From the NCBI GenBank assembly GCA_016721625.1, contig JADKHR010000001.1, forward strand, positions 2,688,503-2,752,502: DNA of 64,000 nucleotides, read 5' to 3'. The notes beneath the pieces are model-generated. The model did no database searches. It worked only from the letters and a program-made list of their open reading frames with translations, and was not told the DNA's origin. Positions 1 to 43,041 of the stretch are shown here, one piece after another. A program made the translations under genes and the position numbers. Numbering within the stretch: position 1 is the stretch's first letter; the number at the start of each line of letters is the position of its first letter. Source of the stretch: Elusimicrobiota bacterium. Its GTDB lineage: Bacteria > Elusimicrobiota > Elusimicrobia > FEN-1173.

Positions 1-2745
1 GCCTGGTCCATGGTGGAGCATGTCCGATTTTTTCCACACGAAAACTTTGGCACCTACGATCGAAATGTTTTTTGGCACGATTTTTTCCACCAGCGCCGGA
101 AACACCAAGGATTATCAAAAGAATAAAATATTCTATTCCTTGTCGGATTGGCGCACCCATTTGATTACCCAGGATCCCCAGATTGCCCGGGGTCCCCTGA
201 TTGAGAATAATTCCTCTGAAACGGCTTCGTTTTATGAGTTCCGCCCGCTCCGTCCCATTGAACCAGAACTTATCGCGAATGGAACGTTCAATTCAAATGC
301 CAGCTCTTGGTCCCAATGGACAACCACCGGGGGAGGGGCCATCGCCTGGAACGACACGGTCGCTTGCGGACATGCCGGCGGTTGCCTATCCGCCGTTTAT
401 AGCGCCGGTTCCTCAGACGCCATGACGGTGAGCACTCGTTTCCCCGTGGATACGACGAAACTTTACGAGGCTCGCTTGGACCTACGGAGCCAAAAACCCG
501 GAAAAATGTGGCTCGTCATTCGACACAATTCGCTTGGGAGTCCAGATATCCGATATGAGTTCAATATGACGCCGGGGTCGTGGAAAACTATTTCCCACGT
601 CTTCACGGTAACCGTTACGACCCCGGCGGCCAGCTTCTGGCTGGAGACCCGAGGCGACACCTCGGATTATCAGTTCGACAACGTCTCTTTCCGGGCTGTG
701 AATGTCACCCCGAACGACTTGACCAAAGCGGTTGAATTGCGGGTCAACCAGCAGGCGACTCCCCAAACTTTCCCGCTGTCGGGTCCCTACGTGGACGCCC
801 GGAATAACACCCTGGCGGGCGCCGTGGTTTTGCCTCCATTCTCGTCAATGGTCTTAATCCCCGCGTATAACAACGACGACGGTTCCTGCAACAACCTGGA
901 AACCCATTTCACCGCGCCCGGCGATTGCCCCACGGCGGGACCGCCGGACGTTACCCCGCCTACCGTTGCGCTGTCGTCGCCGAGCGCCAACCAAACGTTC
1001 ACGACCCATCAAACGGTTTCAATCGAGGGATCCGCGAGCGATGATGTTTATATTTCAAAAGTTCAATTTTTTCTGGACGGCGTTCTTTTCAGCACGGACA
1101 CCACGTCTCCGTATTCGACCCCATGGCCCATAACGAAGGCCGACAACGGAAATCACACGTGGTCGGCCACGGCCTTCGATGCGGCGGGAAATTCTTCCAC
1201 CACGGCCGTTGTCCCGGTCACCGTCACCATTGAAACGATTCCTCCCACCGTGACCCTGAGTTCCCCGACAGCCAACGCGCAGTTCTTTACGCGCAAACGG
1301 TGCCCTTGTGGGCCGCGGCGACGGACAATGTGGGGGGGGGGATCCGCCGGGTAGAATTTCTATTGGACGGATCGGTTTTTGCCACCAGCACGGGCCCTTT
1401 CAGGGGATCTTGGCCCATCACGGCTGTTCAGAACGGGACGCACACCTGGTGCGCCCGGGCCTTTGATTTGGAAGACAACAGCGCCGTTTCTTCCACGGTC
1501 ACGGTCCATCTCAAAATCGACGACGCCCGGTTTGTCTCCCAAACCGTCCCAGCTAAGATGGTGGCGGGCCGTGTTTACCCTGTCTCCGTCGCCATGCGAA
1601 ACACCGGAAGCGTTCCTTGGACCCGTGGGAACCAATACAAATTAGGTTTCCCCAGCGGGATAGGAACGCCGGACACCCTCTGGCTTGGGACCACAAACCG
1701 TGTTCTCCTTTCCACCTCCGATTCTGTGGTGAACGGTGAGGATAAAATCTTCGCGTTCACTGTAAAAGCCCCCACCACCACAGGAAACTACAATTTCCAG
1801 TGGAAAATGGTCCAGGAAGGGCAACACTGGTTTGACGACATGTCCCCAAATGTCGCGGTCAACGTCTTTGTGGACACCACCCCCCCGCAGATCCTATTGT
1901 CCACTCCGACGGCCAGGATCCGGGTAACGTCCCCACAAACCCTGTCGATCCATGCCGATGCCGCCGATGACGATGGAATCGCCAAGGTCTGGTTCATCTT
2001 AGACGGCGTCACGGTGTCCACGGTGACGACCGCGCCCTTCACGTATGATTGGTCGATCACCTCGGCCCTGAACGGCACGCGCACCTGGTCGGCGACAGCC
2101 TTTGATTTCGAGGGACACAGCACCACGGTTGTTCCCGTCCCGTTGACCGTGGATGTCGACGTCACAAATCCGCTCGCCCCCGCCGCGTTGGCCGCGGAGG
2201 GCAAAACAAGGTCGCTGGTTTTGACCTGGCCCCCGTCCACAGACAGCGGGGGGAGCGGGCTGGCGGGGTATCGAGTGGGCGTGGCCCTGGACGCCGGCTT
2301 CGCCGGTTTTGTCGATGGATGGAACGATTTGAACGTGGGCTCAACAACGACCGTGACGGTGTCAGGGGTCGAGCCGGACTCGGTGTATTACGTCCGCGTC
2401 CGCGCTTTTGACGGAGCCGGTAACTTGTCTAACTTTCGGACGGTCTCCGTTCGAACGTTGCCGGAAGCCTCTCTCACGGTGGACACGGCCCGGGCCTACC
2501 CGGTGCCGTTCCGCCCAGGGCGCGGGGCCACGGGGGTAACGTTCGACCGGACGCCGGAAGGAGCGGACATCCGTCTTTTCACCAACGACGGCCGGTTGGT
2601 CAAAACCCTCGCGGGCAATTCCAGCGGCATGGCGATCTGGGACCTCACCAACGACGAAGGCATACCCGTGGCCAGCGGAGTTTACTTGGCGATTATTGAA
2701 AAAGACGGGGGGCGGAAACGCTTGAAGATCGTGGTTCAGAAATAG
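1..2745 (+). CDS. Secreted multidomain surface/adhesin-like protein (CBM-like N-domain, three bacterial Ig-like repeats, NBR1-type Ig domain, FN3, FlgD-Ig/T9SS-type C-terminal domain). The frame is broken once near 1286-1288, and the 5' end may lie left of the window.
   Basis: ORFs 20..1354 and 1300..2745 join into one protein. Ig repeat 2 starts in one frame (SSPTANAQF) and continues in the other (YAQTVPLWAAATDNVGGGIRRVEFLLDG), matching repeat 1 (SSPSANQTFTTHQTVSIEGSASDD..VQFFLDG) and repeat 3. The frame of ORF 20.. stays open back to position 2. The C-terminus (YPVPFRPG..IRLFTNDGRLVKTL..WDLTNDEG..VASGVYLAII) fits the FlgD-Ig/T9SS sorting-domain pattern. Confidence 0.7.
2265..2745 (+). repeat. 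Copy 1 of a ~480-bp near-identical segment (end of FN3 plus C-terminal domain) shared with 5010..5490
   Basis: Direct DNA comparison at a constant offset of 2745 nt. There are perfect runs of ~100 bp (2511-2609 = 5256-5354) and no indels. Confidence 0.9.
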
Positions 2746-2772
2746 AATCCGAAGGCTTGGGTGGGAGAAGAT

Positions 2773-5490
2773 ATGAATAAATGGTTATGGGGTCAACGTT
2801 CGCTACTCATGGCATGTTTGGCGATGGGTTTAAGCGCCTATGCCGAATATCCAACGTGGGTGGGCGAACACGTTTCCGTTGGGCAAAAGGTCGCCGAACT
2901 GGTGGGCCCGGGTCCCGCGGGGGCAGAACGTTATTACGCCAGCTACATTTATGAGGGCACGGGAGGTCATTTCGACCTCGTGAGCGTTGACCCGCTCACT
3001 GGGGTTATGGAGGTCTTTCCCGGGCCGTCCGAAGAGGGGGCCCGGGGGTTGGCGGTGGGCCAGGACGGGAAAATATACCTGGGAACGGTTTGGCATGCCA
3101 AAATCATGGAGTTTGACCCGCAAACAGGAACGATCACTGATCGCGGTCGACCCGGCGGGGCCTACGCGGAAACTTTCATCGCTGAAATTGCCTCGGGCCC
3201 GGATGGCAACATATACGCCGGGACCTATCCGAACGCCAAATTAATTCGGTACCGCCCCGACACAAAGTCCGTGGAAGACCTGGGAAAAATGGGGGAACCC
3301 AATGATCAATACGTCATCAGCGTTGTGGTCAGCACAGATGGCTTTGTGTTCGGTGGCACCGGACCTATAAATTCAAAAATTGTCGCATACAAAATAAGCA
3401 CGGGAGAGAGACAAGTCATCTTAACAACGAATGAGAGTGGATTTGTCAAATTATTTCATGGAAGGGACGGAAAAATCCATGCCAAATGCGATGATGGTCG
3501 AATGTACCGGCTGAATGGGTTTAACGCGCCGGTATCCGTCAACGGGTTCCCTTGGGTGTATAAAAACGAACTCAACAATGGATCCAGGCTCAACATGCCT
3601 GTCGGCGGTTTCGGGGATGTGACCATCACCCAGGGGACCACCACCGTTAAATCGTTCCCGTTTTCCTATAAAGGGAAACCCCGCCGTATCATGACGTTCG
3701 CTTCCTTGCGCAACGGGCCGGCCATGTATTGTAGTGGCATTCTTGATTTTAACTTGTTTTCTCTCCAAGATAACACCTTTACAAATATCGGATATCTTGG
3801 GGGCGGTGAGGCGTATACAATGATCCCGAACGCCGATTCCACCAAGGTGCTCATAGCCGCCTACTCCGGGCTGGCACCCCTCATGTTGTATGACCCGGCC
3901 GTTACCTTCAACCCTGGGATTAACCCCGTTTTCGCTGGTATGGGCCGAATTGACTCTTCGTGGAGACCTCATACGATGGTTGTCCTATCGTCCAGCGTTG
4001 TCGTGGCCGGTGGTCAACCCGGATACGGGAAATTCGGGGGGCCGTTGGTGAAGTGGAATTTTGAAAGCAACGTGGTCGAAACATGGATTCCCATTCCCAA
4101 CGAAAGCCCGTATTCGCTCGTCAAGTTCGGTGGGAAAATCATCGGCGGCACCATCACCAAAAACGGGACCGGCACCACGCCCATCGAAACCCAAGCGACC
4201 TTGTTCATCTGGGACCCGGACACAAAAGAAGTGGAATACGCCATTAAAATGCCCGGAAGCGTCATCACCAATCTGGTCGTCAGGGAAGGGTTTGTATACG
4301 GTTTTTGCGATTCGAAATGGTTTCGGTTCAATCCCGAAACTCGCGCACTCGTACAAAGAACTCAGCGCGGCGTCTGGGCGCTGAGCAAAAGTTTGGTTGT
4401 CATGCCGGACGGAAACGTCTGGGGGCTCGCTGAGTCCGGGATTTTCAAAGTCGATCCCCAGGTGGATCCCGCCCATCCAACGATAAACCCGGTGACCGTG
4501 GTCCTTTCGACCACCGCCCTGGGCATGCCGCTAACGGCGGGATTTGCCGCCAAAGGGAACGATCTTTATTTCGCCTCCCTCACGAAGTTGTTCAAATTCA
4601 CAATACCGTCACCTGTTCCCGACACCACCCCGCCGACCGTCCACCTTAACCAACCGGCGTCCGGCTCCATTTTTTCCAAAGTCCAAACGGTGTCGGTGAA
4701 ATGTACGGCCAACGACGACACGGAGGTCGCGAAAGTCTGGTTTCTCCACAATGGGGTCGTGGTGTCGACAGACACGACTGTACCCTTTTCCTACGCCTGG
4801 CCGATCACGGAATCGGACAATGGCCCCCACACCTTGACGGCAACGGCGTTTGACGCCGTGGGGAACAGGTCCACGACCGCGATCATGTCCGTTCTTGTTG
4901 ACATAGATGCCACACCACCGGTGGCTCCTGTATCGTTGACGGCATTGGCGGTCTCTTCCTCCTCCGTCCACCTGTCCTGGTCTGCGAGCACGGACAACGT
5001 CGGCGTGGCCGGGTATCGGGTGGACGTGGGCCTGGACGCCGGCTTCGCCGGTTTTGTCGACGGGTGGAACGATTTAAATGTGGGGTCCACAACCACCGTG
5101 ACGGTGTCAGGGGTCGTGCCGGACACGGTGTATTACGTCCGCGTCCGCGCTTTTGACGGAGCGGGGAACCTGTCCGATTTTCGAACGGTTTCCGTCCGGA
5201 CATTGCCGGAAGCCTCGCTTACGGTGGACACCGCCCGGGCCTACCCGGTGCCGTACCGCCCAGGGCGCGGGGCCACGGGGGTAACGTTCGACCGGACGCC
5301 GGAAGGAGCGGACATCCGTCTTTTCACCAACGACGGCCGGTTGGTCAAAACCCTTGCGGGCAATTCCAGCGGCATGGCGATCTGGGACCTCACCAACGAC
5401 GACGGCACCCCCGTGGCCAGCGGGGTTTACCTGGCGATCATTGAAAAGAACGGCGCGCGGAAGAAATTGAAGGTGGTGGTGCAGAAATAG
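2773..5490 (+). CDS. Secreted beta-propeller-like repeat protein with an Ig-like repeat, FN3 and a FlgD-Ig/T9SS-type C-terminal domain
   Basis: ORF 2761..5490. The ATG at 2773 gives a signal-like N-terminus (MNKWLWGQRSLLMACLAMGLSAYA). Recurring DG.IY.GT blade-like motifs are followed by PPTVHLNQPASG..VAKVWFLHNG (Ig-like), FN3 and the same C-terminal ~160 aa as the upstream gene. Confidence 0.75.
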   Translation: MNKWLWGQRSLLMACLAMGLSAYAEYPTWVGEHVSVGQKVAELVGPGPAGAERYYASYIYEGTGGHFDLVSVDPLTGVMEVFPGPSEEGARGLAVGQDGKIYLGTVWHAKIMEFDPQTGTITDRGRPGGAYAETFIAEIASGPDGNIYAGTYPNAKLIRYRPDTKSVEDLGKMGEPNDQYVISVVVSTDGFVFGGTGPINSKIVAYKISTGERQVILTTNESGFVKLFHGRDGKIHAKCDDGRMYRLNGFNAPVSVNGFPWVYKNELNNGSRLNMPVGGFGDVTITQGTTTVKSFPFSYKGKPRRIMTFASLRNGPAMYCSGILDFNLFSLQDNTFTNIGYLGGGEAYTMIPNADSTKVLIAAYSGLAPLMLYDPAVTFNPGINPVFAGMGRIDSSWRPHTMVVLSSSVVVAGGQPGYGKFGGPLVKWNFESNVVETWIPIPNESPYSLVKFGGKIIGGTITKNGTGTTPIETQATLFIWDPDTKEVEYAIKMPGSVITNLVVREGFVYGFCDSKWFRFNPETRALVQRTQRGVWALSKSLVVMPDGNVWGLAESGIFKVDPQVDPAHPTINPVTVVLSTTALGMPLTAGFAAKGNDLYFASLTKLFKFTIPSPVPDTTPPTVHLNQPASGSIFSKVQTVSVKCTANDDTEVAKVWFLHNGVVVSTDTTVPFSYAWPITESDNGPHTLTATAFDAVGNRSTTAIMSVLVDIDATPPVAPVSLTALAVSSSSVHLSWSASTDNVGVAGYRVDVGLDAGFAGFVDGWNDLNVGSTTTVTVSGVVPDTVYYVRVRAFDGAGNLSDFRTVSVRTLPEASLTVDTARAYPVPYRPGRGATGVTFDRTPEGADIRLFTNDGRLVKTLAGNSSGMAIWDLTNDDGTPVASGVYLAIIEKNGARKKLKVVVQK
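5010..5490 (+). repeat. Copy 2 of the ~480-bp near-identical segment shared with 2265..2745
   Basis: See copy 1. Confidence 0.9.
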
Positions 5491-5624
5491 GGGGCACCCA
5501 CAGCCGGGAGCCCACGGGAGGACGCAGGGGCATTGTCCGCCGGACTTGGGTTTGGGTGGCGCAAACGGACGGTGGACTATGCGTTCGTCAGCCGCGGAGA
5601 TTTAGATCCCAGATGAGTTTTGTC

Positions 5625-6238
5625 TATCGGCTACGGTTTTTGACATGAAGCGCCAGCATGGGACACGGGCCAGCAAGAGGGATCCATCCAGATACCATCT
5701 AAAGAAAACCCTTGAAAAAAACCGGGGGGGGGGTATACTTATAGAGAAGGCGGGTGTTTCAGACGGAGGGGAAAATGCGTCCTGTGCGCGGTCAACCTTC
5801 GGGCTTCACCCTGATCGAGCTGATGCTCGTGGTGGCGATCATCGGTCTTTTGGCGTCTATCGCCATTCCCAAGTTTGCGGGCCTCATCATCAAATCGAAA
5901 GAGGCGGGTGAAAGGACAGTTGGGCGGGTTGCGGAGCGCCATCAGTATTTATTATTCCGATAACGAGGATTTATCCAGACCCATTTACTGATTTAGCGGC
6001 GACTCTACTAAAAATACATTGACGCGATTGCTTCCATTCGAATTCCCACCGTTCCCTATCGACCCATCCCTATGCCAAACGTTCCAGGCCCGACAGGGAC
6101 GATTCGGCGTGGGGCGCCGTTTTGACGAGTTGGTATTACGACTGGTCCACCAGAGAACTTTTTGTCAACTGCACCCACCTCGACTCCACCGGCCGGGTGT
6201 GGTCCACGTATTAACGATTCCCTTTTCTGGGACCATGG
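5625..6238 (+). repeat. Direct repeat A (~614 bp): pilin promoter region plus a degenerate pilin gene
   Basis: Aligns base for base with 7333..7950 apart from a few substitutions and small indels. It ends at gggaccatgg. Confidence 0.9.
5775..6214 (+). pseudogene. Degenerate copy of the type IV pilin-like (prepilin N-terminal methylation domain) gene
   Basis: The first 44 codons are identical to 7480..7926 (MRPVRGQPSGFTLIELMLVVAIIGLLASIAIPKFAGLIIKSKEA). After that there is a 2-nt deletion and at least three more indels (net -7 nt), so the remainder is readable only across three frames (ORFs 5754..5963 and 6019..6264). Confidence 0.8.
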
Positions 6239-6244
6239 TGGAAT

Positions 6245-6271
6245 TAGGGGACATGATTGACTAGTTGACTT
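6245..6271 (+). repeat. Left 27-bp terminal inverted repeat
   Basis: Perfect reverse complement of 7301-7327. It contains the stop codon (6261-6263) of the transposase C-terminal reading frame. Confidence 0.9.
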
Positions 6272-7272
6272 CCAGCCAGGAGGCCAAGCCTGACGCTGGA
6301 AATATGACGTCCCCTCGTTGTCTCGCGCGCGTCGCCGCACCGTCTCCCATCTTCGTCATGAGCGCCATCTCCCGGTTCGTACGTCCGAGATACTCCACCC
6401 CGATATGGATGAACAGGGCCTTCGCTTTCGATACCCGCGCGGTCCTGTCCCTTTTGAAGAGAATGTCTTTAGATACCTGAGCCTCTTCAGCAATCCGCTC
6501 CGCCACCTGGCTCAGGGTGACCCTTTTTCCTAAGCCGGTCCTGTGCGGTCTCCTCCACCTCCACGGCTTTCATGATTTCCTGAACAAAGTCCCCCGATCC
6601 CAATATCCTGGAATCATAGGCTTCTCGCTCCCCCGCACGCCCGGCTCTCAGCACGTTTCGAACACCGCCCATCGATCGGATCAGGCCTCCTCCGGTTAAA
6701 TCCGTTCTTTTTCCCCGGCGGAATCCCTCCTCGACAAATTCTTCATACATTTTTTTAGCCTTGAAATGGTTGGACGAAAATCGCCCCCATACTTCGGCGA
6801 TTTCCTGCCAGGGAATTCGCCTCTTTCCCATTAACGCACCGTGGCCGCAGTAAGGATAATTCGACAGCTCCTGCGTGTCCTTGACAAGCTTCGCCCGCAA
6901 CGGATTGAGGTGAATGTAGCGCACCAGTTCCAACAAGTAAGGTTCTTCTTCACAAATGATCGATTTGTATCGATTCCCAAAGAGGTGGCCGGATCGCTTA
7001 TGACGGACATTGTAGGCCGTCGCATACCCCGTCATTACTTTTCGCATGAAGGGCACAAGCCCAGTCTTGCCAGAGCGGACCAGGAGGTGGAAATGATTCG
7101 GCATCAGGGACCATGCAAGGATTTGACTTGGATATCTTTCGTTGGAGGTTTCCAGCCGGGCTTGAAAATCAGCGTAGTCCCCTGGACCCGAAAAGAGAAC
7201 CCGCCGCTCGATGCCTCGCGCCATCACATGGTGCAACAGCCCGGGTATATCAACTCTCGCCTGGCGTGGCAT
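6261..7272 (-). CDS. IS200/IS605-superfamily (RayT-like) Y1 transposase with a DnaA-domain-IV-like C-terminal HTH. There is a frame change at 6521-6528.
   Basis: ORF 6487..7272 has the HUH motif (PNHFHLLV) and the catalytic Tyr context (LVRYIHLNPLRAKLV). ORF 6261..6506 (VSKDILFKRDRTARVSKAKALFIHIGVEYLGRTNREMA..ATRARQRG) continues it as ..RLRKKG / VTLSQVAERIAEE after a +1 shift at AAAAAGGG on the coding strand. Confidence 0.8.
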
Positions 7273-7300
7273 GCTCCAAATCTACCTCCTCTCCAACAAT

Positions 7301-7327
7301 AAGTCAACTAGTCAATCATGTCCCCTA
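7301..7327 (-). repeat. Right 27-bp terminal inverted repeat
   Basis: aagtcaactagtcaatcatgtccccta is the perfect reverse complement of 6245-6271. It lies 29 nt upstream of the transposase ATG (7272). Confidence 0.9.
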
Positions 7328-7332
7328 TCTCG

Positions 7333-7950
7333 TATCGGCTACGGTTTTTGACATGAAGCGCCAGCATAAAACACGGGCCAGCAAGAGGGATCCATCCAGA
7401 TACCATCTAAAGAAAACCCTTGAAAAAAACCGGGCGGGAATACTTATAGAGAAGGCGGGGGTTTCAGACGAAGGGGAAAATGCGTCCTGTGCGCGGTCAA
7501 CCTTCGGGCTTCACCCTGATCGAGCTGATGCTCGTGGTGGCGATCATCGGTCTTTTGGCGTCTATCGCCATTCCCAAGTTTGCGGGCCTCATCATCAAAT
7601 CGAAAGAGGCGGCGGTGAAAGGACAGTTGGGCGGGTTGCGGAGCGCCATCAGTATTTATTATTCCGATAACGAGGGGATTTATCCAGACCCATTTACTGA
7701 TTTAGCGGCGACTCTTGTACCAAAATACATTGACGCGATTGCTTCCATTCGAATTCCCACCGTTCCCCTATCGACCCATCCCTATGCCAAACGTTCCAGG
7801 CCCGACAGGGACGATTCGGCGTGGGGCGCCGTTTTGACGAGTTGGTATTACGACTGGTCCACCAGAGAACTTTTTGTCAACTGCACCCACCTCGACTCCA
7901 CCGGCCGGGTGTGGTCCACGTATTAACGATTCCCTTTTCTGGGACCATGG
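7333..7950 (+). repeat. Direct repeat B (~618 bp): pilin promoter region plus the intact pilin gene
   Basis: Aligns with 5625..6238. Confidence 0.9.
7480..7926 (+). CDS. Type IV pilin-like protein (prepilin-type N-terminal cleavage/methylation domain)
   Basis: The leader MRPVRGQPSG|FTLIELMLVVAIIGLLASIAIPKF is the class III signal / N-methylation motif. GGGGAAAA lies upstream of the ATG. The protein is 148 aa. Confidence 0.85.
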   Translation: MRPVRGQPSGFTLIELMLVVAIIGLLASIAIPKFAGLIIKSKEAAVKGQLGGLRSAISIYYSDNEGIYPDPFTDLAATLVPKYIDAIASIRIPTVPLSTHPYAKRSRPDRDDSAWGAVLTSWYYDWSTRELFVNCTHLDSTGRVWSTY

Positions 7951-7963
7951 GTGCTGTGGTCCC
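7941..7963. terminator. GC-rich hairpin between the convergent pilin and tonB-like genes (no U-tract)
   Basis: gggacca-N9-tggtccc, a 7-bp stem. It lacks a following T run on either strand. Confidence 0.35.
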
Positions 7964-8009
7964 CCCTAAACGCATGAACGGGTCCTAATGGGAAAAGGGG
8001 AGAAGCGGC

Positions 8010-8735
8010 TTACTGTAGGCGGAAACGGACGAGGACGGGGAGTTCTTTTTCTTTGAAGCCGTCGGGGAGGGGGGGGAAGGGGGCGGCGGCGGAGACGGCG
8101 TGTTTGGCGGTCATGTCGAAGAGGGAATCCCCCGAGGACATTTTGATCTTGATGGCCTTTACGGTTCCATCTTTTAAGAGAGTGAACCCCACTTTGCACT
8201 CCCGGGTGCCGGCGTCGGTGCGATCCCAAGCTTCCCAAAGACGTTTGTAGACCAACTCGCCATACCACTTAAAGGGGAACTGTTTCGCCCCTCCTCCGCC
8301 CCCGCCGGGGCCGAACCCACCGATCTCAAGGGACGTCCCCACGCCGCCCACGGGGCCTGTTTTGGCGCCTTGGAAATCGCCGTGGCCCAGGGGGGAATTT
8401 CCGCGACCGTCTTTCTTGCCGCCCTTCTTGGGGAGGTTTTTGGGGGCTTCCGGGACCTTTTTTTCTTCTGGTTTTTCGGGTATGGCCACACGGTTTGGGT
8501 CTTCCGCCACAGGCGGGGGCTCCGCCAGGGGAGGTTCGGTGACGGCGGGTCGGCCCACGGGGGAGGCCGTCGGGGACGGCGCGGGCTCCAGCCTCCCGGT
8601 TCCGAACCCCGATTGTCCCCCGAGGAATTGGAACCCATAGTAGACCTGGGGTTTTTCCGTCCAGAACAGGGCCAGGGAAATCACTCCCAGGAGCACGCCG
8701 TGGAGGGTGGATGAATAAATGAGGTATCGGTTCAT
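8010..8735 (-). CDS. TonB-family energy transducer (N-terminal TM helix, Pro-rich linker, TonB C-terminal domain)
   Basis: N-terminal MNRYLIYSSTLHGVLLGVISLALFW, a PEPPP-rich spacer, and the C-terminal region FKWYGELVYKRLWEAW..VGFTLLKDGTVKAIKI..SGDSLFDMTAKHAVSAAAPFPPLP. Confidence 0.8.
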   Translation of the reverse strand: MNRYLIYSSTLHGVLLGVISLALFWTEKPQVYYGFQFLGGQSGFGTGRLEPAPSPTASPVGRPAVTEPPLAEPPPVAEDPNRVAIPEKPEEKKVPEAPKNLPKKGGKKDGRGNSPLGHGDFQGAKTGPVGGVGTSLEIGGFGPGGGGGGAKQFPFKWYGELVYKRLWEAWDRTDAGTRECKVGFTLLKDGTVKAIKIKMSSGDSLFDMTAKHAVSAAAPFPPLPDGFKEKELPVLVRFRLQ

Positions 8736-8788
8736 GGGGATTTGGAGCCGGAACTGTTTAGTCTTTTGGAATTCAATAAACGGTCGAA

Positions 8789-8814
8789 ACTTGTCAAGTT
8801 ACGACTTGTCAAGT
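8789..8814. promoter_or_regulatory. Two copies of the near-palindrome ACTTGTCAAGT spaced 15 bp apart, 55-80 nt upstream of the tonB-like start
   Basis: 8789-8799 and 8804-8814 are identical. Each reads TTGACA on the bottom (coding) strand. I could not place a convincing -10 element. Confidence 0.3.
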
Positions 8815-8862
8815 CATGACTATCAAATCCAGAAAATCCGATAAAGCGGGAATTTAGGGATT

Positions 8863-8885
8863 CCTTCCCCCCTGGAGGGGGAAGG
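8863..8885. repeat. Polypyrimidine/polypurine hairpin CCTTCCCCC-N5-GGGGGAAGG
   Basis: Perfect 9-bp stem in the exbD-tonB spacer. Confidence 0.6.
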
Positions 8886-8937
8886 GTGGATGGGGGGCGG
8901 CCTCCGTCTTCGTTGGTAAAGTCCCCCCCCACCCCAA

Positions 8938-8961
8938 CCCTCCCCCTCGGTGGGGGGAGGG
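8938..8961. repeat. Polypyrimidine/polypurine hairpin CCCTCCCCC-N5/6-GGGGGAGGG
   Basis: Perfect 9-bp stem, the same style as 8863-8885 and 53782-53804. Confidence 0.6.
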
Positions 8962-9088
8962 AGCCACAGCCGTGCCTGTTTTTCATCAATTTGGTGAAAC
9001 CCGCCTCTGACGGAAAAAAGTTCTTATCGGAGTATTTGAGTTTCAAAGTTAGATCCTACCCCGGGCTTTATCATCTTATGGGAAAAGC

Positions 9089-9550
9089 TCAGGGGACCGG
9101 CGAGGGCTCCGGCGTTTTGGGCGCCGGTGGAGGTTCTTCCGCGCTGGTGAGGACGGCCACGCCGACCTTGGCGGCTTTCGACTTTTGGGCGGCGTCCAGG
9201 GCCAGGATCACGTTTTTAAAGGAGACGTCCCGGTCGGCTTCAATCAAGACGGCGCGGCGGGCGTTGGTCTTCAGGGCCTGGGCCAGGAGGTCGGCGAGGT
9301 CGTTACGCAGAACGCGCCGGTCGCCCACGTAATAATCGCCGTCCTGGGTGATTTTGACCCGGAGAGGGGTGTCGTCGTCTCCCGGTTGACCGGCGGCGCG
9401 GGGGAGGTTCACCGGGATTTGGGACTGGGCGATGAAGGGGGACAGGATCATGAAGATGATCAGGAGCACCAACACCACGTCGATGAAGGGCACCATGTTG
9501 ATCTCGGTGATGAGGCGTTTCTTTTTGTGGGAGCCCAGGTGAACTTTCAT
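9089..9550 (-). CDS. ExbD/TolR-family biopolymer transport protein
   Basis: ITEINMVPFIDVVLVLLIIFMI.. TM segment followed by the periplasmic ExbD fold pattern (VKITQDGDYYVGDRRV..LIEADRDVSFKNVILALDAA). Confidence 0.85.
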   Translation of the reverse strand: MKVHLGSHKKKRLITEINMVPFIDVVLVLLIIFMILSPFIAQSQIPVNLPRAAGQPGDDDTPLRVKITQDGDYYVGDRRVLRNDLADLLAQALKTNARRAVLIEADRDVSFKNVILALDAAQKSKAAKVGVAVLTSAEEPPPAPKTPEPSPVP

Positions 9551-40164: not shown

Positions 40165-41066
40165 GCATCCTGATCGATCGCGACACCCGGGTCATCGTCC
40201 AGGGAATCACGGGGGCGGCCGGGTCCTTCCACGCCAAAGCCTGCCGGGACTATGGCACCCAGGTGGTCGGAGGGGTGACGCCGGGGAAAGGGGGCTCCAA
40301 CCTCGACGGCATCCCTGTTTTCAATACGGTGAAAGAAGCGGTGAAGGAAACGGGAGCCACGGCCTCGATCCTTTTTGTTCCGCCTCCCTTCGCGGCCGAC
40401 GCCGTTCTGGAGGCGGCGGACGCGGGGGTAGGCCTGCTCCTCTGCATCACCGAAGGGATCCCGGTGTTGGACATGGCTCGCGTGAAGGCGACTCTCAAAG
40501 GGACCGGCGCCCGGTTGATCGGTCCCAACGGCCCGGGAGTCATTACCCCGGGGGACGAACGGCGGCCCGGTTGCAAGATCGGGATCATGCCCGGGTACAT
40601 CCACAAACCCGGGCGCATCGGCGTCGTTTCCCGGTCGGGCACTCTGACCTACGAGGCGGTCTGGCAATTGACCCAGCGCGGCATCGGCCAATCCACGGTG
40701 CTCGGGATCGGGGGAGACCCGGTTCAGGGGTCTACGTTCGTGGACATTTTGGAGCTTTTCGAAAAAGACGCGGACACCGACGCCGTCTTGATGATCGGGG
40801 AGATCGGCGGGTCGGCGGAGGAGGACGCGGCGATGTTTTTCAAGAAAAAAATGTCCAAGCCCCTTTTCGCCTTCATCGCCGGGCGCACCGCCCCGGAGGG
40901 CCGGCGCATGGGACACGCCGGGGCCATCGTGGACGCGGGCGACGGGCAGGCCTCTCACGGCTCGGCGGCGGAAAAGCGCGCGACGCTGGAAGCGGCCGGC
41001 GTCAAAGTCATCGACTCTCCGGCGGACATGGGAGAAATGGTTTTAAAAATGGTCCGAGGGTCTTGA
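40161..41066 (+). CDS. sucD: Succinyl-CoA synthetase alpha subunit
   Basis: [51 protein letters not shown] (phosphohistidine loop). Confidence 0.95.
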
Positions 41067-41074
41067 CGGCCCGC

Positions 41075-43041
41075 ATGCCTCCCGCCGGGCCGCCCATCGT
41101 TTCTCTCGGCCGCGCCGTTTGCGGCACCTACGCGGAGGCGAGCGAGCGGGAATGGTTGGAAACCAACGGGCGGGGCGGTTACGCCATGGGCCCCGTGTCG
41201 GGGGGGACCACGCGCCGTTACCACGGGCTTCTGACCGTCGCCCGCCGTCCCCCCCTGGACCGTTTCCAGCTCGTCAACCGGGTGGAAGAAGCGGTGATCC
41301 GGGGCGGGAGCCGCGTGGACCTCTCCTGTCAGCAATACCCCGACGTCGTTCACCCCCAAGGCGCCGAACGGCTCGAATCCTTCCGCCTGGACCCTTTCCC
41401 GACCTGGACCTACGATTGGGGCGAAGGAAAACTGGAAAAATCTTTTTTTCTCCGCTACGGCGAAGACACCGGGGTTTTGACCTACCGGCTCCTTTCGGGA
41501 CCGCCCGTGGAACTCGAGGCCCGGCCCCTCCTTTCCTTTCGGGACCACCACGCTTTGGGACGCCAGGACGGCCGGTTCGAAGGCCGGGTCCATGCCACGG
41601 AACGCGCCTTTCACGCCGACGTTCCCGACGGCGGAACCCTTTCGGTGACGACCGCCCGGGGGCGGTTCGAGAGCGCCCCTTCCTGGTTCCGGAACCAGGT
41701 CTACGTGCAGGAGGAGCGGCGCGGCCTTGAAAAACCGAAGACGTTTTTTGTCCCGGTTTTTTCCGTTTGCCCCTCGAGGTGGGGACCCCGGCGCGCCTGA
41801 TGTTTTCCGTGGTTCCGGGCCTCGCGTTCCCGGCGGAGGGCTGGGAAGAGGAAGAGCGGGAACAACGGCGAAAAATCGTCAAGGGGTCCCTGGTTCGCGG
41901 GGCCCTGGGCGGCGCCCTCTCCCTGGCCGCCGACCAGTTCGTGGTCTCCCGGGGGGAGGGCTCCAGCGTCATCGCGGGGTACCCCTGGTTCGGCGATTGG
42001 AGCCGAGACGCGCTGATTTCCTTCCCCGGCCTTTTCCTGGCCACGGGGCGATGGTCCGAAGCTCCCGGGCTCCTGAACACCTTTGCCCGCCACGTCCGCC
42101 AGGGGCTTTTACCGAACCTTTTTCCGGAAGGCGGTTCCTCCGTCGCCTACAACGCGGTGGACGCTCCGCTTTGGTTCATTCGCGCCGTCCAGGCCTATCA
42201 CAAAGCGACCCACGACGACGCCTCCGTCCGAACCTGGTTGCCCGTCATGCGGGACATCGTGGACGCTTATCAAAACGGGGCGGGGTACGACATTCACATG
42301 GACGGTGACGGTTTAATCGTGGCGCCGGCCGCGGACGTTCCTCTCACGTGGATGGACGCCCGGGTGGACGGTCAATCGGTCACCCCGCGCGGAGGAAAGC
42401 CGGTTGAAATCCAAGCCCTTTGGTACAACGCCCTCCAGTTTTTGGTCGAGATCCAGTTGCGGCTAAAAGAGGCCGGGCGGGGCTACGATCAGTTGGCCCA
42501 GGTGGCGCAAAAAAGTTTTAATGAAAAATTCTGGAACGAGGAGGACCAGTGTTTGTATGATGGGCTGGATGGAAAACACCGGGACCCCGCGCTTCGCCCC
42601 AACGCCCTGCTGGCGGTCAGCCTTCCCTACGAGATTTTGGAAGAGAAACATTTTCGTCCCGTGGTGGAGACCGCGTGGTGGGAACTTCACACGTCGCGGG
42701 GGCTCCGAACGCTGGCTGGACGGTTTCCTGAATACCGCGGCCGTTGCGAAGGGTCGCCCCACGAAAGGGACGGCGCCTACCACCAAGGCACGGTCTGGCC
42801 TTGGCTTCTGGGACCCTTCATGACCGCCTACGTCAAGGCGTTCGGATCCACGGAGGAGACCAAAAAACAGTTGGTTCGATTTCTCCAGCCCTTTCTCCAT
42901 CACTTGACCGAGGCCGGGGTCGGCCAAGTGTCCGAAATTTTCGACGGAAACCCGCCTCACACTCCGCGGGGCTGTCCCGCCCAGGCGTGGAGCGTGGGGG
43001 AACTCCTGCGGGTGATGTGGGAGGAAGGGGTCACGCTATGA
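41075..43041 (+). CDS. Glycogen debranching enzyme, archaeal/bacterial amylo-alpha-1,6-glucosidase type (GDE_N_bis + GDE_C). The frame is broken at 41730-41736.
   Basis: EWLETNGRGGYAMGPVSGGTTRRYHGLL.. (ORF 40571..41800) reads to ..EERRGLE, then continues as EDVFCPGFFRLPLEVG..GYPWFGDWSRDALISFPG..YHQGTVWPWLLGPF..CPAQAWSVGE (ORF 41767..43041). Confidence 0.85.

Follow-up and report, generated by a model that had tools for sequence, protein, structure and literature searches.

Organization of the pilin locus

The DNA analyzed here, hereafter the window, is a 64-kb stretch (64,000 nucleotides) of contig JADKHR010000001.1 from the Elusimicrobiota assembly GCA_016721625.1. It contains a duplicated prepilin gene and, between the two gene copies, a transposase cassette that is very probably a TIRtron, a ~1.08-1.09-kb unit of the TIRYT class. 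Repeat finding and pairwise alignment recovered the two direct repeats of ~615 bp described in the initial annotation of the locus, copy A (614 nt) and copy B (618 nt), each with the same upstream region and the same prepilin gene. The alignment coordinates also bore out that the 1083-bp cassette lies exactly between them (Table 1). The order of the locus is L - pilinA - element - pilinB - TonB, and pilin unit and element together form a 1708-bp direct duplication with the element at the joint. In an independent copy of the element (contig L026), one end reads GAATTTA/GGGG, compared with GGAATTA/GGGG in the window, and the opposite end of the element in the window is GAGATA, with agreement at four of six positions. 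Because of these end sequences, the six and five bases outside the inverted repeats probably belong to the element.

The prepilin gene of copy B is intact, as originally stated, and encodes 148 amino acids. Its open reading frame (ORF) matches PF07963 with 30.2 bits (cutoff 21.2) and TIGR02532 with 33.2 bits (cutoff 16.3). The leader, QPSG/FTLIELMLVVAIIGLL (QPSG/FTLIELM), ends in glycine and is followed by FTLIE and a hydrophobic helix. The gene in copy A is the same for 44 codons and is out of frame thereafter, and the alignment confirmed both the small indels beyond this point and their net effect of -7 nt in the coding sequence. Inside the gene, the only differences are deletions in copy A, four in number: -2 at 5906, -2 at 5966, -2 together with two substitutions at 6007-6010, and -1 at 6053. 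Upstream of the gene, GGG in copy A corresponds to AAA in copy B at 5661-5663, G10TAT corresponds to GGGCGGGAAT at 5724-5736, and there are two further single-nucleotide differences. In the pilin family as a whole, both ends of the gene are conserved at the DNA level and the middle is variable.

The junction from pilin to element was found in four contigs outside the window, namely L001 (ENA ERZ2624663), L002 (MTKZ01120273), L003 (ERZ925387), and L023 (JGI 3300045378). All four have the same junction, CCATGG/TGGAATTAGGGG, and an intact pilin reading frame.

The sigma-70-like promoter upstream of the gene was found only in copy A. Its spacer contains a G10 tract at 5724-5733, which was confirmed by L001 and L002. 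In the corresponding region of copy B (7417-7445), the G tract is interrupted as GGGCGGGA, with 13-14 nt, and no consensus promoter was found. A relative, contig L024, has the same promoter with G8 and G11 tracts (313-345 and 2038-2070), one for each of two pilin paralogues. A poly-G spacer tract of varying length looks like a slipped-strand, phase-variable pilin promoter.

The hairpin downstream of copy B had been considered a pilin terminator that contains the junction, with repeat A stopping inside its first arm. Neither point could be maintained. The end of repeat A lies instead at the 3' end of the hairpin's 5' arm or where the loop starts. Since the hairpin is not accompanied by a U-tract and its stability is not above that of shuffled sequence (z ~0), the terminator label is unsupported and was rejected. 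An Rfam scan of 5000-9000 assigned no RNA family to the locus.

Table 1. Features of the duplicated pilin locus and the cassette (positions in the window)
Feature	Position	Strand	Description
Repeat copy A	5625..6238	+	Pilin upstream region and pilin gene; ATG at 5775, original stop at 6212-6214
Sigma-70-like promoter, TTGAAA-16 nt-TATACT	5712..5739	+	Only in copy A; 10/12 matches
Spacer, TGGAAT	6239..6244		Six bases separating repeat A from the 27-bp arm
Left terminal inverted repeat, TAGGGGACATGATTGACTAGTTGACTT	6245..6271	+	Holds the last codons and the stop of the transposase gene
TIRYT gene	6261..7272	-	Y1/HUH domain and C-terminal helix-turn-helix (HTH) resembling DnaA domain IV
Promoter-like site of the transposase gene, TTGACT-17 nt-TAGATT	7279..7307	-	-35 box within the right inverted repeat
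Right terminal inverted repeat	7301..7327	-	Perfect complement of 6245-6271
Spacer, TCTCG	7328..7332		Five bases separating the right arm from repeat B
Repeat copy B	7333..7950	+	Pilin upstream region and intact pilin gene 7480-7926
Hairpin, GGGACCATGG-GTG-CTGTGGTCCC	7941..7963	+	Downstream of copy B

Inverted repeats and transposase gene of the cassette

The perfect 27-bp inverted repeats reported for the cassette were confirmed. The two arms are the sole copies in the window when up to three mismatches are allowed, and none is expected by chance. Dispersed copies beyond the two flanking arms were likewise absent from the window. The outer tip, (TA)GGGGACAT, agrees with 7 of the 8 positions of the motif GGGGWSAS, the last position being T and not S. 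The arms are non-palindromic and have no fold of their own (0 and -5.6 kcal/mol, not above shuffled sequences).

The transposase gene is split in the assembly into 6487-7272 (261 aa) and, in another frame, 6261-6506 (81 aa), with a deficit of 2 nt at ~6523. Restoring one C and one T at this point (CCCTTTTT to CCCCTTTTTT, the sequence of L001 and L002) yields a single protein of 337 aa. The minus-strand ORF matched Y1_Tnp (PF01797) with 39.2 and 37 bits (cutoff 23). The best NCBIfam match was the REP-associated tyrosine transposase (RAYT) model REP_Tyr_transpos (NF047646), with 57.6 bits, below its cutoff of 80. No TnpB-type second ORF is present within the 1.08-kb element.

Database searches gave at least 8000 homologues, typically of 337 aa, and those with an organism name are mostly metagenome-assembled genomes (MAGs) of Elusimicrobiota. 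Many of the homologues carry a precomputed Bac_DnaA_C match (PF08299), a family that the single sequence did not reach at the Pfam threshold. When the family profile was compared with the PDB, DnaA domain IV was found over residues 253-327 with a best E of 3e-4, and the matched domain IV structures (2z4r, 1l8q, and 1j1v) had E values of 3e-4 to 6e-3 over residues 244-329. For the Y1 domain, the profile search returned no solved relative at E < 0.1, and the PDB search with the single sequence returned no meaningful match. In an alignment of 29 homologues, H60 and H62 of the HUH motif NHFHLL are invariant, as are Y112 and Y119 in RYIHLNP. The putative catalytic tyrosine is assigned by similarity to E. 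coli RayT. In the column of residue 102 (motif NRYKS), Phe replaces Tyr in 3 of the 29 homologues.

Classification of the cassette and comparison with known systems

In their account of these elements, Di Nocera, De Gregorio & Rocco 2013 (PMC3733652) name RAYT-like genes with terminal inverted repeats "TIRYT" and the corresponding units "TIRtrons", and give GGGGWSAS as a motif common to many, the majority, of the repeats described there. The subclass description of Quentin et al. 2018 (PMC6006769) places most TIRYTs in TnpA-REP subclass 2.1, with a Bac_DnaA_C/HTH C terminus and no REP (repetitive extragenic palindromic) hairpins. The combination of Y1/HUH domain, DnaA-like HTH, and terminal inverted repeats fits this published definition, on which the class assignment is based. 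TIRtrons are an already described, little-studied kind of element, of which the cassette is a further member. In their passages on TIRYTs, named in 2013, PMC3733652 and PMC6006769 give no biochemical or genetic characterization and no demonstrated activity.

Agreement with the TIRYT class extends to several details. The protein is RAYT-like, is among the longest of the superfamily, and has the C-terminal Bac_DnaA_C-like HTH of subclass 2.1.2. Non-palindromic terminal inverted repeats lie on either side of the gene, one of them overlapping its 3' end, and in some genomes the repeats also occur as singles and dimers. The differences are the tip GGGGACAT, with its one mismatch to GGGGWSAS, the presence of at least two full, diverged 1081-bp copies in a related MAG, which is more like an insertion sequence (IS) than like a single-copy domesticated gene, and the position of the present copy at the joint of a 1.7-kb duplication. 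The host phylum, Elusimicrobiota, is absent from the passages of both papers used here; a term search of PMC6006769 gave no occurrence of Elusimicrobia, and no such search was made of PMC3733652.

The initial annotation had considered terminal inverted repeats unexpected for this enzyme. This holds for canonical IS200/IS605 transposases; for TIRYTs, repeats tipped by GGGGWSAS are part of the definition (PMC3733652, PMC6006769), and because the enzyme belongs to this group, such repeats are expected here. With the canonical members IS608 and ISDra2 (PMC5027513), the cassette shares the Y1/HUH fold (PF01797) and the lack of an evident target-site duplication. However, the protein, with 337 aa, is more than twice as long as TnpA (about 130-160 aa), the ends are terminal inverted repeats instead of subterminal hairpins, there is no tnpB, and a conserved target tetra- or pentanucleotide was not detectable.

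The REPtron or RAYT-REPIN systems (Nunvar 2010; Ton-Hoang 2012, PMC3333891; Bertels & Rainey 2011, PMC3116915) belong to the same Y1/HUH superfamily, and the best NCBIfam match of the transposase is the RAYT model. In these systems, too, a short repeat stands in inverted copies on both sides of the gene and can also spread as miniature pairs. In contrast, the arms of the cassette are non-palindromic and without hairpins, the NCBIfam score stays below the cutoff, an extra HTH domain is present, and dispersed copies are absent from the window. Another parallel is provided by the prochlorosin arrays of picocyanobacteria (Laurenceau et al., bioRxiv 10.1101/2020.03.09.984088), where a TnpA-REP-type gene lies beside multicopy genes for small secreted proteins with conserved gene ends and a variable core. 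The authors of that study themselves withdrew the causal claim for TnpA-REP. The present locus differs in being one case, and the elements of its relatives adjoin unrelated genes.

Related elements in other genomes

Flanking inverted repeats were present in all five relatives examined, which is at odds with the view that such repeats are foreign to the enzyme. A relative gene with 78% identity has a perfect 25-bp repeat, GGGGACATGATTGACTAATTGACTT, one with 56% identity has a 33-bp repeat, and another relative has a 23-bp repeat. The repeat-gene-repeat architecture is also found in L025 and L026. Where both ends are present (L015, L021, and L025), the unit measures 1081 bp from GGGG to CCCC. 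The same length is implied by the short-read contigs of the copy in the window, and the window itself has 1079 bp, two bases short at 6523. The 25-bp repeats, which contain two TTGACT half-sites, are 96-100% identical among the relatives, compared with 73-91% for the interiors.

In a scan of genomes for the repeat, as the initial annotation had proposed, a single related MAG was matched, GCA_016714745.1, and the source genome was not. In this MAG, at least two full copies are bordered by the repeat, which also occurs as solo ends and in miniatures with 20-45 nt between two repeats. Miniatures in a related Elusimicrobia MAG (L016, 6844-6923 and 7895-7974; L018, 2044-2116; L019, 815-881) consist of two inverted terminal repeats with a spacer of 17-45 nt and, judged by their sequence, are MITE-like (miniature inverted-repeat transposable element) or REPIN-like derivatives of the TIRtron. 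Outside the GGGG, neither a target-site duplication nor a conserved target motif was found, the flanks showing only a frequent A or TA. The fixed 1081-bp unit, the near-invariant repeats with a variable interior, and the miniatures argue that the repeats are functional recognition sites. The same comparison provides defined substrates for experiments on TIRYT activity.

Two relatives have additional copies of an element end. In L021 (JADKCG010000008.1), a perfect 123-bp tandem duplication (4730-4975) lies at the transposase-3' end of a full TIRtron. Its unit is composed of 7 nt of flank, the terminal repeat, and 91 nt of the interior, and it is preceded by a shorter stutter, AACCTTAGGGGACATC. 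L005 contains three direct copies (84-88%) of the ~60-nt transposase-3' end with the repeat (2004-2068, 3966-4030, and 5453-5514). These copies, within 3.5 kb, surround a single TIRYT gene, which is syntenically conserved and recurs in several metagenomes.

Nature of the frameshifts in copy A and the transposase

The statement that copy A is out of frame is correct for the assembly; as a statement about the organism it does not agree with the intact frame of the four independent contigs. In copy A as well as in the transposase gene, the frameshifts probably stem from deletions of a long-read consensus that were left uncorrected. All differences that set the window apart from at least two short-read contigs are deletions, most of them in or next to short runs of one base or of a repeat, and they include the double loss in the transposase gene (CCCCTTTTTT to CCCTTTTT). 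In natural decay, substitutions are expected to outnumber indels, given bacterial mutation spectra. With the two bases restored, both the protein (337 aa) and the element (1081 bp) have their canonical lengths. No indel was found on the side of copy B and TonB against the independent contig L012. For each of the four deletions of copy A, the nearest distinguishing base between A and B is 139 nt or more away; in that zone, short reads would map as well or better to copy B, and the errors would have been left unpolished. The source is a single contig of 2,758,065 bp, presumably a closed long-read assembly. Since the frameshifts are most likely artefacts, both pilin copies are probably intact in the organism.

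Three observations weigh against an artefact. The G10 run has its correct length in copy A, and at least this part was therefore polished. Four errors in ~150 nt are a high number even for an unpolished nanopore consensus. The transposase gene of L001 has a frameshift of its own, which makes genuine decay of the element copy possible. For polished long-read MAGs in general, a caution follows from the artefact reading, as one copy of a recent duplication can retain consensus deletions and mimic a pseudogene.

Another split gene in the window is gde_arch (TIGR01561, archaeal-type glycogen debranching enzyme), which is divided between 40571-41800 and 41767-43041 on the plus strand. The break is at T6/C4 runs near 41,755-41,775, with positions 1-204 of the model on one ORF and 256-568 on the next. 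This gene is either a pseudogene or contains a residual homopolymer indel of the assembly, and its split was counted in favor of the artefact reading.

Evidence for and against a real duplication

The duplication itself is likely to be real. Apart from the pilin-to-element junction, which was seen independently in the four contigs, the junction from pilin through hairpin to TonB was seen independently in L012, which is 100% identical to window positions 7518-9007 (pilin B, hairpin, and tonB) over 1490 nt without an indel. L001-L003 have the A-type upstream variants (G10, T, G), in every case together with the element junction. An assembler needs real reads from element to pilin, and a unit of 1.7 kb would be covered by long reads; L - A - element - B - R is therefore the simplest genome.

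A number of results count against a real duplication. The junction from element to pilinB (CCCCTATCTCG/TATCGG) and the left boundary of copy A were found only in the window. A metagenome scan with the start of the repeat, CTACGGTTTTTGACATGAAGCGCC, returned nothing, and a second scan with the G variant returned only the known MTKZ contig. The empty site that the initial annotation had suggested looking for, a single pilin copy with an intact hairpin, was not recovered in full in these two scans, nor was the element-to-pilin junction. A simple insertion allele with the element only upstream or only downstream of the pilin gene was not recovered either. L003 (k=127) crosses from pilin to element and L012 (k=31) crosses from pilin to TonB, neither with a branch, and one of the two junctions may thus be missing from some strains. 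The shortness of both contigs suggests low coverage, in which case the missing branches would be weak evidence. At positions 1608-1661 of L001, past the right repeat, the sequence is the reverse complement of its own left junction (54/55 nt, the length of one k-mer at k=55, with a coverage of 2.45x). At this coverage the fold-back looks like a graph artefact, although it could also reflect a palindromic site of insertion or an element that is inverted in some of the population; the proposed structure does not explain it. Finally, no comparable flanking duplication was found at the elements of the relatives examined.

An assembly artefact or strain chimera is an unlikely alternative. In this case, one path would have been threaded through strains with the element on different sides of the pilin gene, or with and without it, yielding a duplication absent from any one chromosome, and a minority haplotype would account for the poor consensus in copy A and the element. 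Consistent with a chimera, the element-to-pilinB junction is confined to the window, each of L003 and L012 covers one junction and gives no indication of the other, deletions of the consensus type are concentrated exactly in copy A and the element, and the A-type and B-type upstream regions resemble alleles. However, the junction from the element to the pilin upstream region must exist in some real molecule, and the 2.76-Mb contig presumably derives from long reads, which would cover the whole 1.7-kb unit. A chimera also needs two independent insertions 0.6 kb apart in coexisting strains, a premise it shares with the model of real recombination, and a misjoin in addition.

In contig L023, the locus is joined to unrelated sequence in two regions. 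Positions 1-566 are unrelated low-GC DNA joined to pilin codon 5. In 1500-2261, the 3' third of the TIRYT gene is fused to an unrelated frame, giving a 400-aa ORF without a Pfam match. A chimeric assembly is the probable explanation of L023, a rearranged locus a possible one.

Origin of the duplication

The best overall explanation of the locus is a TIRtron at the joint of a real duplication, with artefactual frameshifts; our confidence in this combination of statements is evenly balanced. If real, the duplication is an ordinary IS-linked rearrangement. The route that we favor, tentatively and with somewhat less than even confidence, is homologous exchange between two insertion alleles that flank the pilin gene. 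The element would have been located just downstream of the pilin gene on one copy of the chromosome and just upstream on another, and a local hop could account for such two-sided occupancy. If these alleles then recombined by homologous exchange inside the element, the product would be pilin - element - pilin, with the element exactly on the joint. Alternatively, a circle of pilin and element could be reintegrated by homologous recombination, giving the same product. The difference between the A and B upstream regions, with coding sequences that are otherwise identical, fits recombination of two alleles. Of the readings offered in the initial annotation, recombination between element copies is thus the one favored, in the form of an exchange between two insertion alleles.

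Tandem duplication by unequal homologous exchange is known in association with insertion sequences, as is the integration of circles composed of an IS and its flank, for example the translocatable units of IS26. The present locus resembles these cases in its product, X-IS-X with the IS on the joint, for which homology suffices and no special transposase chemistry is needed. It differs in that classic cases have the structure IS-X-IS-X-IS and that IS26 uses a DDE enzyme. Here, a single element copy is present, and the intermediate with two alleles would have to be supposed. The shared orientation of the element in the two alleles would fit single-strand, replication-fork-directed Y1 transposition, which is established for IS608 and ISDra2 (PMC5027513) and is inferred here.

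A second possibility, an ordinary tandem duplication of the pilin gene into whose joint the TIRtron was inserted later, without a role in the duplication, had been listed first in the initial annotation and is retained at low weight as improbable. Many pilin paralogues are found in Elusimicrobia, and insertions within either gene or promoter would be selected against. L024, a more distant relative, contains two pilin paralogues with 86% identity that lie 1728 bp apart and flank an unrelated AAA_14/DUF4143 gene, so tandem pilin paralogues split by an accessory gene do occur in the group. Diverged pilin paralogues without the cassette had been named as the sign of an old tandem duplication. The L024 pair is of this kind but lies at a different locus and around a different gene, and it therefore corresponds to this expectation only in part. 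Against this order of events, an insertion exactly at the joint would be a roughly 1-in-10 to 1-in-100 coincidence within the neutral zone. An element-free tandem was not found, and the pilin-to-element junction is common to several diverged samples with identical coding sequences.

Comparably doubtful is a capture by the element itself, in which the enzyme would have used its own end together with a pseudo-end beyond the pilin gene, excised pilin and element as a single-stranded unit, and pasted this unit beside the resident copy (transduplication). HUH rolling-circle elements such as IS91/ISCR and Helitrons capture flanks. The exact position of the element on the joint, the perfect 123-bp end duplication of L021, and the solo ends in direct orientation near the L005 element are compatible with such an activity. 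However, the flanks of the true end and of the putative pseudo-end have no sequence similarity, and neither a repeat-like sequence nor a significant hairpin that might serve as a pseudo-end was found at the left boundary, 5625. The unit of pilin and element was found at no other locus, and no experimental activity of a TIRYT is given in the passages of PMC3733652 and PMC6006769 mentioned above.

There is a slim chance that TIRtrons are active single-strand transposons that duplicate or co-mobilize an adjacent gene through a pseudo-end or through template switching at their ends. If so, they would drive the expansion of the pilin gene family in Elusimicrobia, and the structure in the window, the 123-bp duplication of L021, and the solo ends of L005 would be footprints of one end-centered replicative mechanism.

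That copy A is a genuine pseudogene or a silent cassette for pilin variation or phase switching, as had also been proposed, is most improbable: although a frameshifted copy lies beside an intact one, the better promoter is on the broken copy, and the family has conserved DNA ends and a variable middle, the two copies show no diversity in the variable region except the deletions, copy A keeps its full promoter and 5' end, unlike the promoter-less, 5'-truncated copies of the pilS type, the frameshifts are absent from the four other contigs, and a deletion-only pattern with essentially no substitutions is atypical of natural decay.

Regions adjacent to the pilin locus

Upstream of the pilin locus, positions 20-5490 on the plus strand encode three consecutive large surface-type proteins of 444, 481, and 909 aa with Big_7, fn3, and Kelch domains. 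Look-ups of the exact protein gave no record for the 909-aa protein, the 261-aa ORF of the cassette, or P0124.

Downstream, a sharp mosaic boundary of recombination between the window and L012 is located near 9008. In the comparison of 7518-9505, L012 differs from the window beyond 9007 at 40 of 498 positions, inside exbD. A G/C-rich intergenic region with strong structure (DNA fold z = -3.8) occupies 8740-9090, between tonB (8010-8735) and exbD (9089-9550, minus strand); the miRNA-precursor models of Rfam picked it up as a long hairpin. Within this region, 8789-8818 consists of two tandem 15-nt units, each with a ACTTGTCAAGT palindrome, and from their sequence these units may be an operator.

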